In this document: piece by piece, positions 1-9,744 of the stretch
Position numbering within the stretch: position 1 is the stretch's first letter
Layout of the letters: the number at the start of each line of letters is the position of its first letter
Assembly (NCBI GenBank): GCA_010093815.1
Contig: ML996567.1
DNA length: 64,000 bases
Direction: 5' to 3' (one strand)
Source of the DNA: Pseudovirgaria hyperparasitica
Lineage: Eukaryota
Made by a program: the position numbers and the translations under genes
The notes under the pieces: model-generated
Seen by the model: only the letters and a program-made list of their open reading frames with translations
Told to the model about the DNA's origin: nothing
The model's database searches: none

Positions 1-614
1 TGCGTGACGAGGACGTCTGTATCGCTGGGTACTGTGCCGGACCATGCGTCAAGCCTAGGCTCATATTGGAAAGCGAAGCTCTCACGCGGCCCACAGGCAG
101 GAATTTGAGGTGCGCCATATATGCGGAGAGATCTAGATAAAGATGATGCGGACTTGATTGTGATTGTCGTCGATGAGTGCTGCAGATAGCGGATGCCTTT
201 CCAATCTAGACTTGCGCTTCGCTGTGCCGAGGACAGTGAGGGGCGGGTCCGTGGATCGAGATAGGTATCGTGATTTCCAGCAATAACGATCTTATGATGG
301 TATGGTAGAGAGGCGATCCAGGAGATCTGAGTTTGTAGGGATTGCGTGGAGCCATCGTTTGTGAGGTCGCCGGCGTGAATGAGGATGTCACCAGCCGGGA
401 GGTCAGTGATTTGGAGATCGTGGGTGTCGGAGATGCAGACTATACGTATAGGTTGCGTATCAGGAGAGAGCGTGGCGCGGAGAGAGTTTTGAATGTGGTA
501 AATGGTGTAGAGAATGAGTCGAACTGGGCATGTCAAAAGGAGGTAGACAAGAGACGGACGCTCGAAAGGCAGCGGCGCTTTAAAAGAGGGATAAAGAACG
601 ATGGCTGAATGCAT
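1..614 (-). CDS. Calcineurin-like metallophosphoesterase (MPPED/239FB-type), 3' end runs off the window
   Basis: Minus-strand frame open from ATG 614 to the window edge, so absent from the ORF track. It reads IRIVCISDTHD...GDILIHAGDLT...KIVIAGNHD...TDVLVTH, the metallophosphoesterase motifs DxH, GD, GNHD and H. Confidence 0.9.
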   Translation of the reverse strand, partial: MHSAIVLYPSFKAPLPFERPSLVYLLLTCPVRLILYTIYHIQNSLRATLSPDTQPIRIVCISDTHDLQITDLPAGDILIHAGDLTNDGSTQSLQTQISWIASLPYHHKIVIAGNHDTYLDPRTRPSLSSAQRSASLDWKGIRYLQHSSTTITIKSASSLSRSLRIYGAPQIPACGPRESFAFQYEPRLDAWSGTVPSDTDVLVT

Positions 615-2076: not shown

Positions 2077-3529
2077 TGTGCTGCCGCGTTCGTGCTTTCG
2101 AGATGCTGGTCAAACTATAGCGCGGTACTCGATCAGAAGTGCAGAGAACTCAAGTGGGAAGTAATCAGTTTCGACGGCGCGCGATTGTTGCTTCTCCATG
2201 AAACACTGTAGGTTAGATGAACGCGTGGAAGCTACAGCTTCCAGCTGGTGCTAGCGTTCACTGCTGACTAAGATGCTATCTGGGCTTGACATAGGTACCC
2301 TTGGACCCTTGGACATGCAGACAAAAGCATAGATACAATACAAGCTTGGAAGCATTTAGTAATGGCAGTGCATGCTGATTCCGTCAATCTTGCTACTATA
2401 TGGAACTCAAAAGCGGGTGCTTGAGATGGTCTACTGGACTTGATATTCTAGCACACAATGAACAAAGTGCACTTTCGATCGTGGAAGCATAGGCTAGTAC
2501 CCTTTCGAAATAAGAGTTTTACACACACACGCGTAGTGTGGACTTATGCACTGTTGGTTGGGACCCGGGAAAGTGGAGTGGTATACAAGCATTGCTTAGG
2601 ATCAGTTGGAAAGGTCCAAGTTTGCATATACATACATCTAAGTCATTGTGTCGATTTGGTGGAGCGGTCAGATTCGATATGGGCAATGCTGCAACTGGTC
2701 ATGGGACATCCATATGTTCGCTATCAGCGGTTAGTACGATCCGGTAGTGCTACTTAAGTCGATATGCCTTTTGGAGATACGCGGACGTCGCCGTGAGCCT
2801 CCGTAGTCCGATATCTGCGAGCACCAAGACGCTTCAGTCTTCCTTAGTCTTCAGACTTCAGAAAAAATGAGACACTTTGAGTCACTCTGCCAGCATCTGA
2901 TCAACAACAGACGTGCAGAGAGCACGTAAGACGATGCCAGCACTACTCGGTTGCTTGCTCATGTCTCAGGCAATGAATGTGCGCCTCCACAGCCGCCATA
3001 TCATGTCGCGGGAAAAGGCGCAACGAGCGGCTGATATCTGATGATCATGATATAGAAGTTGAATGCGGAAGTGGTTAGGTTCGGAGGAGCAGTCGGAAAG
3101 AGAGTTGATACTGATATGCGATCTCGATCACACCTCGAGCATATCATTCACATTGAACATGCATGTTTAACAGGTTGGAGATTGAGTACAAAGTGCAGAG
3201 GTTGTCCAAAGGGAAGGAGCCTTCAAAATCTGCCCCACCCAGCCCAAAGAGAACCTTGGAAGCCCTTTGTTGACAAGCCTGCACCCTGCCCCTCCATCTA
3301 TCCTTCTACCCACCAACCCACCAATCCACTAACTCACCGTTCCCTGTCTGTCGCCTTCACTCTCTGGTCAACTTTGCAATCCTCGCCCACTTCTTTGGTT
3401 CTGACATTCATCTTTCTCCCACACAACACTCCAAGGCTTGTTTGATAGTTTCCTGCAACGCTTCGAGTTTCCCAGGCGCCCACAACACGAAAGTGCTCAG
3501 TTTTCCGACTCTCAAACAACCCACTCAGA

Positions 3530-4210
3530 ATGTCGTGGCAAGCATACGTTGATAGCAGGTATGGGTCTACTGAAGTACAAAGAGCATTGTGATCTGACTG
3601 GTGTCTTCAGCCTTGTCGGCTCTGGAAATGTCGACAAAGCAGCAATCTTCAGCAAAGCAGGCGACAGCGTTTGGGCTGCCTCGTCTGGCTTCACAGTACG
3701 TGGAACCTCGTCGTTGCCCAAACCCTTCATCGCGATCCGTAAATAGGCATAAGAGGATTGGAGCATCGAGGAATTTGCAAAAACCTACGACTAAAACTGC
3801 TACACCACGATGAATCAGGCGCTGACACGTGGTATAGCTTAGCAAGGAGGAGATTACTAAGATTGTCGAGTCTTTTACCGACAAAGGCGATTCTTCTGGC
3901 TTTAAACAAATCTCGGCCAATGGGTTCTACGTTGGAGGTGAAAAGTTTGTGACATTGTTGGCCGAAGGACGGAGTCTATACGGCAAAAAGGTAAGCATCT
4001 AAGGCAGTACTAGCGATTCATGCAAGGACATTGTGTGTCACACATATCAAAATGCTAACCACTTGTGTATCACAGGGTAAGGAGGGTATAGTCATCGTTC
4101 AAACCACTCAAGCGCTGCTCATTGCCCACTATCCCGAAACTGTGCAGCCTGGCGCGGCTGCCAACACCGTCGAACAGCTTGCCGACTACCTGACCGGCCT
4201 CGGGTACTAA
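3530..4210 (+). CDS. PFY1: Profilin, 4 exons
   Basis: Spliced translation MSWQAYVDSSLVGSGNVDKAAIFS...GFYVGGEKF...LYGKKGKEGIVIVQTTQALLIAHYPETVQPGAAANTVEQLADYLTGLGY*, with three GT-AG introns. Confidence 0.96.
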
Positions 4211-4523
4211 GCTTCCATTCACATGTATTTTAGTTGCATATACCGATGCTGGCAGAAATGAGCAAGGTGCCGCACGGCTTTCATGATGGTAGTCATATCG
4301 CATAGACAAGAGAAAAGAAAGGAATGAGTTATGGATCACATACTATGTATGCGTGTATGGCAAGATGAAGATTATATGAGTGAGCAAACTGAAGTTTTGG
4401 CCATTCATATTATTTCGCAATGACCTCCACATCCACACTGCTGTCCTATAAGACGAGGAACTTGGTGAAATCAGCCAATACCGACACCATGGCGGTCTCA
4501 TGAAAACGTAAGTGAATTCTGAT

Positions 4524-6583
4524 CTAGACCTTCATATGCTGAAGCTTCTCGACGACCATATCGAAGAATGCTCTCTGTAATCTCGCACCAACCTCCTCTT
4601 TCCTTTCGTCCTCATTTTCCATGATATTGAATGCCGTTGGACCCACGATACAAGATTTCACGACTGCCTCAACCGTGTTACCCAGATGGCTCTTCACGAA
4701 CCTCAAAAAGTCCTCGGTCTCACTTAATAACCGGTTCCGCACCTTTAAGGTCGTGTTTGGCCGCGCATTTTGCACGTTCGGAATTCCTAGAATCTGATCT
4801 ATTGGTTTCCAGTACGCAATCTCCAGCAGGATGATCCCTAGCGCATAAAGATCATAGCTTTTCTTGAATCCACCTGTCTGGTACGTAGGACCATTCGCTA
4901 CTGGTACGGCGTCGCGATTTCCCGACCCCTGAGTTCGTGGGTGTCGGTACAAGTCATGCGCGGCATTCTCGGGCGGTTTCTCGGTCATGTCCTCGTTCGC
5001 AGCGGGTCGCGAGTAGTCGAAGCCAGACACGTACGGCTGCGCGAAATCGATACCATCTAGCACATCAGCGCCGACGGGGTGCTCACTGAAGAATAGGATG
5101 TTTGCGGAGCGCAGGCCCTTGTGTAGCCAGTTGACAGCGTGTAGGCGCTCCAAACACTCCGCAATGCGTGTCATGAGCGTGATACGATCCGTCAGGGAGG
5201 GCATGTCGGCCTGTGCGTGACGGAGCAAGTCGAGCAGTGAGGTAGGCCGTGTAGACGGGTGCACGCCATGCGGTTTCTCAAAGACGAGGCCGAAGCGGCA
5301 ACTATCGTCCTCCGCGGAAGGGTCTACGTCACGGAAATAGCCCAGGCAGTGCGGTGCGCGGAATTGCTCGGTGCGATTGTTTTCCTTGAGAAGTATGGCG
5401 AGCTGGCGGATGCGCTCTTGGACTTTCGCGTCTGGGCCACCGTTGAAGTTTTGTGGATCGTAGGTTTTCCATTCGACCCAGACTTGCTGCTTGCCGCGGC
5501 GCGAGGAGGACGAGGTGCTGGGGAAGGTGTAGTACGCTTCGACGCGATGGGACTCCAGAGGGTCATCATTAAGCTCATTATCGAGGATTGTGATGTCTCG
5601 ACGAGGGAGCTCTACGTCTCTGATCTGGGAGGCGGTGTTTGTGAGCTGGAGATCACGAGCAAAGGAATCTGTGAGCACGGAATCGTCCTCGATTGCGGAG
5701 TTGAGGGCTTTGATCTGTGCGAGGGCAGCTAGATTGTGCATTTTAGATTCTCTAGGGATGCGGTCTTGAGCAATATTTGCCAGGCCCCGTGTCTGCAAGA
5801 ATAGACCAAGGGGATCGAGTGGTCCCCGAACGCTAGCGCTCTGCATATGCATAGCAGATTCGAATATCTGGAGTAGATGGTCGACTTTGCCGTTCAATTG
5901 CATAATTTGATACTCCGTCCGAACTTGCCTTGACTGCAGTAATTGGAGTTGATTGTGGTTGAGCAGCTCGCGCATGAAATCGTTAAGGGCAGTCAGCTTG
6001 ATGATGAGAGTTTCCACCTTCTGTTTGTCCCAGCTCGCCCACTGAAGTCGTCTGGGATAGGTACGCGCAGATTGAGCCCAGGCCAGAGACTTCGTGAGAA
6101 GTTTTTGAGAGCGCGGAAAGCGTCCCTCGAATGTCGTATCTGCTCGCTCGAGCGACATGCGCGGCTCCTCGTCCGGACTTGTGGGCTCAACATTGGTATC
6201 TGCAGGCATGTCTGAGACCAGTGGATGTCTCAATGCTTGATGTCGTTCATCAATTCTGCCGAAGCGATCGAGCGCTTGCTTCTGTTGGTCGAGGACGTCG
6301 ATAAGCAGCCCTTTGCTATGATTACTGATGAGCAGACCCTCATCTTGCTCATCTAGATTTGCGACTTCAGCCCAGTCGAGTAGTCGATATTGCTCAGTCT
6401 TGAGCCGGACACGTAGGTACTGAAATTCTCGGGGCATCCCTTTAGCCTCCGAAAGAAGCTGATATCCTTCGGAAAGTTAGCAACGTATAAAGCACGCCGA
6501 CAGGAAGACCTACCTTTGACACATCCTGAGAACAACTGGAACGTCAAAGAAACCACGCCAATCCCAACACCGACTGGATCCAT
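4524..6583 (-). CDS. HeLo (prion-inhibition/cell-death) domain plus C-terminal kinase-like (pseudokinase) domain protein
   Basis: Exon 1 MDPVGVGIGVVSLTFQLFSGCVKG, 47-nt intron 6467-6513, then YQLL...RLKTEQYRLLDWA...RRLQWASWDKQKVETLIIKLTALNDFM (HeLo signatures). Kinase-fold motifs follow: VWVEWK, LHKGLRSANILF, VSGFDYSRP, DLYRHP, DLYALGIILLEIAYW. Confidence 0.88.
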
Positions 6584-7870
6584 ATCGTCCTAGCTATAGT
6601 ATACAATAGACTAGACTGCGAGGTCGATTGGGGTTAATTTTTTTGGCATAAGAGATTCGACAGAGATCTCCAATATTAATATCTCGCTTCTTATGGCAAA
6701 CGACCGCCAGATATGCCTACAACAGTGACGGTCGACAGCCTTCTGGATCTTCAGAGGACTGCGGCAGCCGTCAGACTGGCTCAGCCTCACCGGTTAAGAC
6801 GCCCTGCATGATCTAGATCAAGTGGCTTTCGGAGAGTCGCTATGGGAACCTCAAATGCGTGAAACCTTGCAACGAGCATGGCTACAGTAAGGCAGCTTCT
6901 GTATTGATCGCATACACCCCTACCATGGTATTAATTCCAGATATGCCTTCAAATGAGCCTTGCAAGAGAAGTAGGTTGTGCATCTTCGACGTAGGGCAGA
7001 CAAAGAGGTAGGGTTCCTAGCTCCGCCTCGCACTAAGCCACAGCTGTACCGCCACGATTGTTTGAGACGATGCCGTAGATTCGTTTCGTGTGACTAGCAG
7101 ACTTGTGCATATAGTAGTGGACCGTTTGGAATATATTGAATTTATTGTATTGCAGTTTATCATGAGAATCATGCCATCAATCCCATTGTAGGTTCTGCAT
7201 GTAGTTCGGATGCCCCGTCTTAGAAATTGACCTCCCGCCCAAACACCGTTCATGCGTGATAAAATCAAGGAGATGGTCTTTCTGCAAGCTCAAAAAGATG
7301 GATATCATAGCTTGAATGTCATGCAACGCCGCTGATATGCAGAGTGGACCACCGGCTGGCTCCTCGACCCTAATAATGCCCAGAAAACCCTTACTCCGGC
7401 AATGATAGAATTATGACATGCGTTAAGATAGTAATGACAGATACAGAGAGGTTGGGATGTAAACGATGTTCCATGCTAGGTTTACATCGATGCGTTGCGG
7501 CCTGAAGACTATCGGGGCCTTTCCAACTGGGGGGAGATAGTTTGTTCGCAGAGATACCTATGCACCTCGAGATATTTGACTGTGAAAGTCAAGCTGGTTC
7601 AAGGCATCACCCATCGTAAAATAGGTAGATATGTCGCTCGTGATATTCGCAGAACTATTGTTGGCACGATGATCACTATAGCCAGCGACAGGTAAAGGGG
7701 CATCGATATCGAAAAGGAGATAGTCGTAGACAAGGGCAAATTCTGAAAGGGGATCTGGATGGATTGCGATGTGGCTTCGTCTGAACCGAAAGTTATTATC
7801 CACATCACGACAGAGAGGCAAATAGCGAGTGATGAGCGGTAGATCCAGTGTAAGTTGTGTTGAGATGCAG

Positions 7871-9744
7871 CTAGAGGACTGCACAAGCACTTCCGGTTAA
7901 CCTGTCAGCCAATGTCCGATATCAGCGTGTTGTGGCGAAGAGATATGAAGAGTATGACAGTGGGGTTAAGGGGAAGCGGGAGACTCAGGAGACTCTACAG
8001 CTTCGTCAGGATCTGGAGTATTGTCCAAAGAATTGGTGGCACCACGGGAGAACATATTGAGAAGGACCCACCACCTCTGACGCTCGATCCGGTGTATCCA
8101 GCAATTCACCACTTTCAGCCGATCTCGTACGCTCGTTGTGTGTAGCAAGACATACTTCTCCTCGTCGTGGATCGGAAGGACACTTGCAAACCAATACGGG
8201 AACGTTGCAGCATCCTCAGGTGGTCCACCGTAAGCTTCCACGATACGATCATCCAACCACCTTGCACTGGCAGTGCGCATTGACTCGACATACTCCCTGC
8301 CTTTTTGGAGTAGCTCCTGAGTTGTCATGGACTTCAACTTGGCGTTCAATTCAGCCGGTGAATAGGAATTTATTTGCGAAGTTTCGAGCTCTTGCGACTC
8401 ACGTGGGAGATCCGCGGCAGCAAGGATTTCGGAGGCTTCTCGCTCTTCCTCTTCTGCAATGCCTACATCGTCGACACGTTCGATATTCCCGGTGATGTAG
8501 CCGTCGACCATGGTATGTGAGCGTACTCGGAACCTGCCGACGCCACGAGTTTCGATATAGCAACGCCCATCGGCCTCATATTGGTAATTGATAATTTCCA
8601 GGAGGGTTCCGTATTGTACAAATTGGCTGGGACCAAGCTCCCCTTGAGGAGCTCCAGTACGATTATACATGACCATTCCGAACCTCCGATCTCGTTCTAG
8701 GGCGCGACGAATCATGAGGCGGTAACGTGGTTCGAATATGTGAAGAAATGTTGGCATGGCCGGGAATGCTAGTGTACAAACGAACAGTGGAATGGCGGAA
8801 TCCCCGGATCCAAACTCTTCTGCGACCACAGCTTCGGCGCGGGAAGCCACGAGCTCTGGACATAAGCCATCTAGAAGTGAACATAGAGCTGCGTTGCTAG
8901 GCCGATTGCCTAACGATGGTGGCATCGGCAGTGTGCGTCGACAGAAAGGACAATGGCGGGAATGATCGAGCACACGCGCGAGACATTTCCGGCAAAAAGA
9001 ATGACCACAGGTAGTTGTGACTGGGTCAAGCATTAGGTTGTAGCATACTTGGCAGTCGAGCTCCTTGTAGGCAGAGTCTCTCAGTTGGTGTAGGAAAGCA
9101 GTGTCCAATTGTTCGCATTCGCCACGCACCGGTGATGAACGATAGATCAGGTCAGAGGTGCGTTTGAGTTCGCCTCGTTGCGCCAAGAGATATGTCGCCT
9201 GTAGTCGACCAGCAGAAAGCTCCCAACAACGTGGCTCAGGACCCTTCTCTGTCAGAATCGATGACGTCTCCTCCGCGGGCCGGACTTCTTCCATGAAAGT
9301 CGAACATACAAGTCCAGCGTCATGACTTGCAGCAGTGGTGGCGATGGCCTCCATAACCTTGAGAAGTGTAACATCAACATTGCACTCACCCACGGCGTGC
9401 ACTGTGCTGCATTCTCTGCATTGGACTCCACGCTGGCGACCCGGTGTATTTGGATACGATATGTTTTCTCGTGGTTGCTCCTCGGGCAAACACTTACGAC
9501 ACATCGAGTGGCCGCAGGGCAGCGTGACTGGTAGTTCGTATGGCCGAGAGCAATACGGGCATTGGATTAGACGTATAACTGCCCTGGCATCCTCGTAGGC
9601 ACTCAAAGCAGTATGTGTCCCTCCACTGGCTGCAGATGACGACGCATCGTCGTTCATCGATTTGTTTGGCTTGTCCAACGATACACTGGGCGATTTCTCT
9701 TCCCCCTCAGCGAACGAGCGTCTCTGTGGTTCTAACAGATTCAT
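7871..9744 (-). CDS. Double RING finger + LON-N domain protein (LONRF / CrgA / CarS-like E3 ligase) ending in CaaX
   Basis: RING1 CPYC...CGHSMCRKC, RING2 CQVC...CGHSFCRKC...CPFC, LON-N IPLFVCTLAFPAMPTFLHIFEPRYRLMIRR. Predicted intron 7902-8071 (GTGGGT...CTGAT...CAG) joins QRW to LTGSACAVL*. The unspliced frame stops at 7966. Confidence 0.88.

Follow-up and report, generated by a model that had tools for sequence, protein, structure and literature searches.

A HeLo domain joined to a kinase fold

The window analysed in this work, a 64,000-nucleotide stretch of contig ML996567.1 from the Pseudovirgaria hyperparasitica assembly GCA_010093815.1, carries on its minus strand a two-exon gene for a protein of 670 residues, without internal stop, in which a HeLo domain, a helical linker and a pseudokinase follow one another; the features of this focal gene are all given below in window coordinates on that strand. 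Exon 1 (6514..6583) encodes the glycine-rich hydrophobic N-terminal segment, from Met1 to Lys23 plus one base, the 47-nucleotide GT..AG intron (6467..6513) holds a GCTAAC branch-like site, and exon 2 (4524..6466) runs through the stop codon. A deposited Pseudovirgaria hyperparasitica protein of 670 residues (P0001), annotated at its source as hypothetical, matches the focal protein at every one of the 646 residues queried. In runs X3 and X4, both from one sample whose type is not on record, no run being labelled RNA, the contigs lack precisely this intron together with three GT..AG introns of a neighbouring gene, and DNA run X1 retains the introns of both; from these intron-skipping joints we infer that the gene is transcribed and spliced in the sample of X3 and X4. 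The spliced contigs also unite the focal gene with this convergent, presumably profilin-like neighbour (window 3302-7902), which may reflect overlapping 3′ ends, contigs being no proof of it, and read depth is therefore uninformative on the level of focal expression.

The HeLo domain covers residues 5-221 approximately (5874..6571, with the intron inside). PF14479 matches exon 2 at E 2.3e-25, with 90.1 bits against the curated Pfam cut-off of 23.2, and exon 1 adds a sub-threshold match (E 0.009). When a predicted model of residues 1-298 was compared with 48,161 chains, HET-S (2wvo) came out best (Z 13.3, root-mean-square deviation (rmsd) 4.0, 197 residues aligned), followed by Rx-CC (Z 8.2), MLKL (7.0) and NRG1.1 (6.8), at values that helical bundles commonly reach. 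The top four rows of a Foldseek search with the HeLo region are HET-s/HET-S as well, and the LFxxC and 'W(A/x)xxD' stretches of the focal domain align with HET-S. On a simple hydropathy scale, the highest-scoring window of the whole protein is residues 4-22 (1.78), and the N-terminal helix has a median of 1.57 in the 39 of 120 homologues with a pattern-matched N-terminal motif.

Between the HeLo domain and the kinase fold lies a 'brace'-like linker (residues about 222-304; 5625..5873), modelled with helices at 218-237, 242-249, 268-283 and 290-295. It is the least conserved region of the protein: compared with six orthologues, identity is 22-55% here and 53-68% in the kinase fold; the HeLo domain shares 35-38% with three orthologues. 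Because the HET-S match extends to focal residue 281, the later HET-S helices may have their counterpart in part of this modelled brace. We found no amyloid domain in Pfam at E ≤ 1, two amyloid motif patterns are absent from the protein, and its C terminus is modelled as the helical end of the kinase fold, not as a prion-forming domain. An earlier, sequence-only reading of this DNA had proposed a HeLo domain opening with a glycine-rich hydrophobic helix, then a helical linker and a pseudokinase, without an amyloid motif; Pfam, the modelled helices, the hydropathy profile and the structural matches bear out each of these elements and their order.

The pseudokinase occupies residues 305-670 approximately (4527..5624). 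Its C-lobe matches DUF7580 (PF24476), which passes at E 1.2e-6, and the Pfam kinase models stay below their cut-offs. The full-length model has a mean predicted local distance difference test score (pLDDT) of 84 and a predicted template modelling score (pTM) of 0.87, with low confidence in the first residues, residues 508-519 (pLDDT < 50) and two short loops. The 50 best structural matches to this part are all kinases (Z 16.7-20.2), headed by CRAF (Z 20.2, rmsd 3.2, 268 residues aligned), and rat MLKL ranks 33 by VIA-align (Z 17.1, rmsd 4.4, 248 residues aligned); a Foldseek search likewise points to a kinase fold. The profile search and the structural model with alignment that had been suggested as checks thus return a HET-S-like N terminus with PF14479 above its cut-off, and a C-terminal kinase fold recognized in Pfam through DUF7580.

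Within this fold, the residues that kinases need for catalysis are largely replaced. The β3 lysine of the VEWK motif (Lys357; 5466..5477) is kept in 95 of 97 close homologues, and Glu355, two residues earlier, in all 97; among 143 distant relatives, which are the new ones among the best 150 of 5,399 profile matches, the β3 position is K in 106 and R in 21. HKG stands in place of HRD (5115..5123), aligned with the HRD of PERK and with the HKD of a family of fungal kinases introduced below as partner kinases, so that the catalytic aspartate is lost; the motif is found in 119/120 homologues, the remaining one having a gap, and a catalytic aspartate in 4 of the 143 distant relatives. The DFG motif, with its Mg-binding aspartate, is replaced by GFD (5016..5024), with G505 and F506 in 119/120 homologues, and the distant relatives have GFD (73), GFE (43) and in no case DFG. 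A glycine-rich GxGxxG loop is present in none of the 97 close homologues. All these sets were picked by similarity to the focal query, which inflates the conservation counts. The sequence-only reading had noted the same three motifs and had placed GFD correctly; its HKG, given as about 5117-5125, lies two bases away, at 5123-5115.

A profile comparison with the fungal partner kinase family (probability 96.8, E 2.2e-10) pairs HKGLRSAN with HKDIKPGN, SGFD with CDFG and YRHP with YCAPE, focal family first. Because HKG aligns there with HKD, the simplest reading is that it derived from HKD by loss of the aspartate, and because of the two replacements, HRD to HKG and DFG to GFD, the domain is very probably catalytically dead. 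By eye, and outside the coverage of the profile comparison, the invariant Glu355 falls at the VAIK alanine and an invariant Arg375 at the αC glutamate, which suggests that ATP binding is weak or lacking. An active atypical kinase, catalysing through Asp507 and Lys357, would account for the conservation of Lys357, Arg476 and Asp507 (95/97 each) and of Asn479 (90/97). We consider it extremely improbable, as the catalytic aspartate occurs in 0 of 119 aligned close homologues and is rare among distant ones, DFG and the glycine-rich loop are missing throughout the respective sets (0/143 and 0/97), and position 507 varies in the wider family (D, E, G, N, H, Q and others).

A candidate switch residue and the kinases of relatives

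Although its catalytic residues are replaced, the domain appears to keep those by which kinases sense phosphorylation. Thr518 (4983..4985), in the activation loop and modelled with low confidence, is a candidate phosphorylation site: the position is threonine or serine in 97/97 close homologues and 138/143 distant relatives, 13 residues past the DFG-equivalent glycine. Lys473, at the position of the HRD arginine, and Arg510, five residues after the same glycine, are invariant in 97/97 close homologues. This spacing equals that of Thr197, Arg165 and Lys189 in protein kinase A, the phosphothreonine and the pocket that RD kinases provide for it.

Furthermore, many relatives of the focal gene lie beside an active-type kinase. 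The HeLo-pseudokinase family comprises 3,924 representatives at 50% identity (E ≤ 1e-10 to the focal profile, partial matches included), and we examined 80 metagenome loci, assigned by tree to the orthologue clade (30) or to the remainder (50) and merged into groups at 90% identity, pairing being counted only where the flank measures 4.5 kb or more. In 11 of 16 non-orthologous locus groups a gene for a kinase of one family, here called partner kinases, lies upstream within 4.5 kb, nine times head-to-head and twice on the same strand, and downstream in none of 12. The far flanks, 291 kb in total, hold one weak partner-kinase match, and one locus with a shorter flank (L067) has the kinase directly downstream. 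Partner kinases are set apart from a canonical-kinase outgroup (100/100), and most have aspartate both in the catalytic loop and in the DFG position. Several carry additional domains: TPR (L067, L072, L077, L078), ankyrin (L026, L032, L057) or Hsp70 (L074). In five database proteins (P0179, P0191, P0215, P0264, P0360) the kinase is fused to the HeLo-pseudokinase; these are gene models, some of which may be mis-joined neighbours, and they show adjacency either way. Other architectures among the gene models are HeLo-pseudokinase-TPR-kinase (P0360), NB-ARC-TPR-HeLo-pseudokinase (P0265) and HeLo-pseudokinase-ankyrin (P0269).

Two further patterns at these loci were set aside. Nearest neighbours agree between kinase and pseudokinase in 7 of 14 linked pairs, which shared descent explains, and we do not read it as co-evolution. 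In three of the eight orthologue groups a kinase lies 3.7-3.9 kb downstream; this canonical HRD kinase is only remotely related to the partner family and was left out of the strict pairing count. Elsewhere in the family, a metallophosphoesterase gene lies about 2 kb downstream of a distant, kinase-paired HeLo-pseudokinase (L082 6481-6951, L083 13736-14206), and a second unpaired HeLo-pseudokinase clade (L041, L043, L045, L046, L056; P0267) is followed by a carboxylesterase gene, with a Zn2Cys6 transcription-factor gene upstream of two members of this carboxylesterase-linked clade (L041, L062).

The sequence-only reading had suggested a pseudokinase-gated executioner of cell death, and both the conserved activation-loop threonine and the kinases that adjoin or are fused to relatives make such a switch more likely. 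We propose, at about an even chance and by analogy with MLKL, a phosphorylation-gated membrane-attack switch of which the focal copy would be a conserved, unpaired family member. The probably dead kinase domain and the helical linker would hold the HeLo domain shut until Thr518 is phosphorylated by a separate active kinase, one of those whose genes adjoin many relatives or are fused to them. The pseudokinase would then release the HeLo domain, the protein would oligomerise, and its freed hydrophobic N-terminal helix would enter the fungus's own membrane as in HET-S. To judge from HET-S and MLKL, the outcome would be regulated cell death or local permeabilisation. Because the focal copy is unpaired, the gene for its kinase would have to lie at some other genomic site.

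Likeness to known executioners

The proposed mechanism has its closest counterpart in vertebrate MLKL and RIPK3. Shared with the focal protein are the order of helical bundle, linker and pseudokinase, the β3 lysine, GF[DE] in place of DFG and a serine or threonine in the activation loop; a dedicated active kinase encoded in an adjoining gene is a likeness of the relatives only. The differences are equally specific. The focal bundle has the HeLo fold of HET-S (Z 13.3), which is larger than the bundle of MLKL (Z 7.0), the candidate site lies 13 residues past the GF glycine rather than 8-9 as in MLKL, and we found no RHIM or amyloid step for the focal protein. Human MLKL has HG330K331 and GFE351 (PMC6013482, in part) and the catalytic loop of mouse MLKL reads HRN (PMC12463104, in part), whereas that of the focal protein reads HKG. 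The sequence-only reading had drawn a parallel to human MLKL at both motifs, and this holds for the position of GFD and GFE but not for HKG and HGK, which differ residue by residue.

A special kinship with MLKL finds no support, since MLKL ranks 28 or lower (Foldseek) and 33 (VIA-align) among kinases in the structural comparisons, and is absent from the best 60 of 204 matches in a sequence search of solved structures. The simplest reading of the likeness is convergence. Most likely the focal protein works like MLKL, by analogy of its parts, and it should not be filed as a member of the MLKL family. Plant MLKLs, which have themselves been proposed to be convergent with animal MLKL (bioRxiv 10.1101/681015, in part), share the HeLo domain, brace and pseudokinase (AtMLKL1-3; reportedly also wheat Pm13), but the focal protein is without their serine-rich tail, and no plant MLKL chain is among the structural matches listed for either focal model.

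Among fungal proteins, HET-S and HELLP share with the focal protein a HeLo domain with an N-terminal hydrophobic helix, and HET-S kills by freeing this helix (PMC3531502, in part). The focal protein differs from both in having a 365-residue pseudokinase where they have a C-terminal prion-forming domain, and its locus has no adjoining NLR with an amyloid motif. Its composition is exactly that of the fungal HeLo/HELL proteins with a kinase-like part (PF14479 with PF24476, DUF7580) mentioned in a figure legend of a review (PMC12881547), whose available part gives no mechanism, partner kinase or test for them. The gasdermin-protease pairs described in the same portion of that review resemble the relatives in another respect, in that the executioner has as its neighbour an enzyme that carries sensor domains of the repeat type; here the pairs consist of kinase and pseudokinase, and the focal locus is unpaired. 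Our search of the literature, mostly of open-access main texts, found no paper on the pairing of kinases with HeLo-pseudokinases in fungi, and the available parts of PMC10197012, PMC9262711, bioRxiv 10.1101/2022.03.16.484565 and PMC4835503 contain neither such a pairing nor an assay of such a protein.

In the partial sources at hand, the fungal HeLo executioners with a described mode of activation act through amyloid templating, or inside an NLR or allorecognition protein. For a kinase-triggered necroptosis in fungi, the HeLo-pseudokinase family offers Thr518 as a candidate site, gene pairs that occur naturally, and a family of kinases as candidates for the trigger. More tentatively, and at somewhat less than an even chance, ascomycetes may have independently built, from a kinase family of their own, an amyloid-free death pathway resembling that of RIPK3 and MLKL, in which repeat-bearing sensor kinases would phosphorylate HeLo-pseudokinases and, in Dothideomycetes, the focal gene would have abandoned pairing to become a conserved hub for several unlinked kinases. 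If true, an MLKL-like switch would have been assembled independently three times, in fungi as well as in animals and plants.

The unpaired focal locus

At the focal locus the surroundings are conserved in another way than in the paired relatives. A tail-to-tail profilin-like gene is present in 14 of the 17 orthologue loci whose downstream flank is 2 kb or longer, and in none of the 50 non-orthologue loci, many of which have short flanks. On the other side, 15 orthologue loci have a metallophosphoesterase gene in head-to-head orientation, where paired relatives have their kinase: 0.7-1.1 kb upstream in L007, L009, L014-L018, L020, L021, L023, L024, L028, L048 and L063, and at 3.1 kb in L006. 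This synteny could be neutral, or the enzyme could act as a brake on phosphorylation.

Pairwise dN/dS among orthologue loci is 0.04-0.17 for the HeLo domain (9 of 13 pairs computable) and at most 0.2 for the kinase fold in 10 of 12 computable pairs; several of the synonymous distances approach saturation, and no value could be obtained for the focal gene, which is too distant. The two remaining kinase-fold pairs, at 0.54-0.59, fall in one orthologue subclade (L011, L012, L019). The sequence-only reading had described a lone immune-type gene among housekeeping genes; taken in the sense of an accessory insert, this view does not fit orthologues that keep their profilin synteny with dN/dS mostly at or below 0.2. 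Between variants of the orthologue within a species (P0094 versus P0284-P0286) there are 8-9 differences in about 650 residues, and in Alternaria some variants (P0270, P0271, P0095, P0278) are common to several named species; this is too little variation for a claim of balancing selection.

In the finished, unrooted tree the focal gene groups with profilin-linked loci (89/96), and a wider clade (99/97) unites the profilin-linked loci, the focal gene included, with three kinase-ankyrin-paired loci. Loss of the linked kinase in the focal clade is a reasonable reading of this unrooted tree. It omits 41 of the 105 rows of a quick tree, namely near-duplicates and four long branches, among them three paralogues from the same genome; the assignment of loci to clades comes from that quick 105-row tree, without a completed careful search.

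A conserved, unpaired copy across Dothideomycetes suggests either a common executioner or a non-lethal role. In the latter case the protein would serve a routine job in membrane, septal or cytoskeletal signalling or scaffolding, through the same phospho-switch, after loss of the linked sensor kinase. The profilin synteny, the low dN/dS of the kinase fold and the apparent transcription in one sample all accord with such a role, as does the reported separability of immunity from cell death for plant MLKLs (bioRxiv 10.1101/681015, in part). The hydrophobic N-terminal helix is nonetheless kept, the HeLo domain diverges fast for a housekeeping gene (35-38% identity to the three orthologues), and conservation is equally expected of a downstream executioner common to many sensors. 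We regard a non-lethal role as unlikely, if far from implausible.

Several observations weigh against a kinase-triggered executioner at this locus. The partner-kinase profile finds no match across the 64 kb of the window, nor in the adjoining 10 kb on the left, no partner kinase lies upstream in any of the eight orthologue groups, and the kinases that partner the closest paired relatives form a clade to which none of the three partner-family kinases of the same genome belongs. Across 14 linked pairs, co-divergence of kinase and pseudokinase is not significant (Mantel rho 0.13, p 0.20). The Fisher p-values for the pairing contrasts (0.002 and 0.0003) are optimistic and overstate independence, because the locus groups are related by descent. 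Further, stable synteny and purifying selection are unlike what is typical of allorecognition genes, and plant MLKLs can act without killing (bioRxiv 10.1101/681015, in part).

The three partner-family kinases encoded in the Pseudovirgaria genome (L101, L102, L103) are all unlinked to the focal gene; the three genes lie at about 3.018 Mb of G000 C1, 1.091 Mb of C6 and 0.189 Mb of C4. Of the three, L101 comes closest (94/92) to the kinases that accompany the nearest paired relatives, and it is sister to the kinase of the metallophosphoesterase-flanked locus L082/L083, L103 carries ankyrin repeats, and L102 has many Dothideomycete orthologues. L102 was weighed as the partner: its orthologues occur with the focal orthologue in 10 named species, which is expected of any conserved gene, and in the tree it stands apart from the kinases of those nearest paired relatives, to which L101 is nearer. 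None of the three can be named as the partner of the focal protein.

Besides the focal gene, the genome encodes three further HeLo-pseudokinases. One (L003; L097 5373-9038, G000 C6 about 79-83 kb) is a 1222-codon frame with a HeLo domain, a pseudokinase that keeps HKD, and a long tail that looks protease-like by eye; the C-terminal 330 residues of this paralogue have no match in Pfam or to PDB sequences. Another (L002) is immediately preceded, on its own strand, by reading frames with NPHP3_N (NACHT-associated) and ankyrin domains (L095 4918-6786 and 8420-9901; L096 485-1210; G000 C2 about 1.087-1.093 Mb), and the two may form an NLR-executioner pair.

An executioner released by another trigger, be it an NLR, proteolysis or an unrelated kinase, would be in keeping with this arrangement, with the annotated joining of P0265 to an NB-ARC-TPR protein, with the lack of a linked kinase at the focal locus and with the metallophosphoesterase in the head-to-head slot of the 15 orthologue loci. 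Yet the unpaired clade retains Thr518 and its basic neighbours, and the genome does encode partner-family kinases; we consider another trigger improbable. The focal protein might instead act as a decoy or brake: mimicking a substrate, it would bind kinases of the partner family, or its paralogues, and so damp the signal for death. Its gene is unpaired, conserved and apparently transcribed, and the genome holds three more HeLo-pseudokinases. A pure decoy would need neither a HeLo domain under purifying selection, as it is in all nine computable pairs, nor the hydrophobic helix that is kept, which makes this very improbable. The phosphorylation-gated switch proposed above remains the reading that we favour.

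The nearest neighbour in the window is a separate gene on the plus strand (approximately 3530..4240), tail-to-tail with the focal gene, which from its sequence we take to be profilin-like. The second gene on that side is presumably an RS-rich RRM gene, likewise named from its sequence (RRM match weak, E 0.008), and LON-RING and RICTOR genes lie on the other side of the focal gene. Past the profilin-like and RRM genes, 4 kb beyond the focal 3′ end, the window opens with a calcineurin-like metallophosphoesterase gene on the minus strand (window 3-458).
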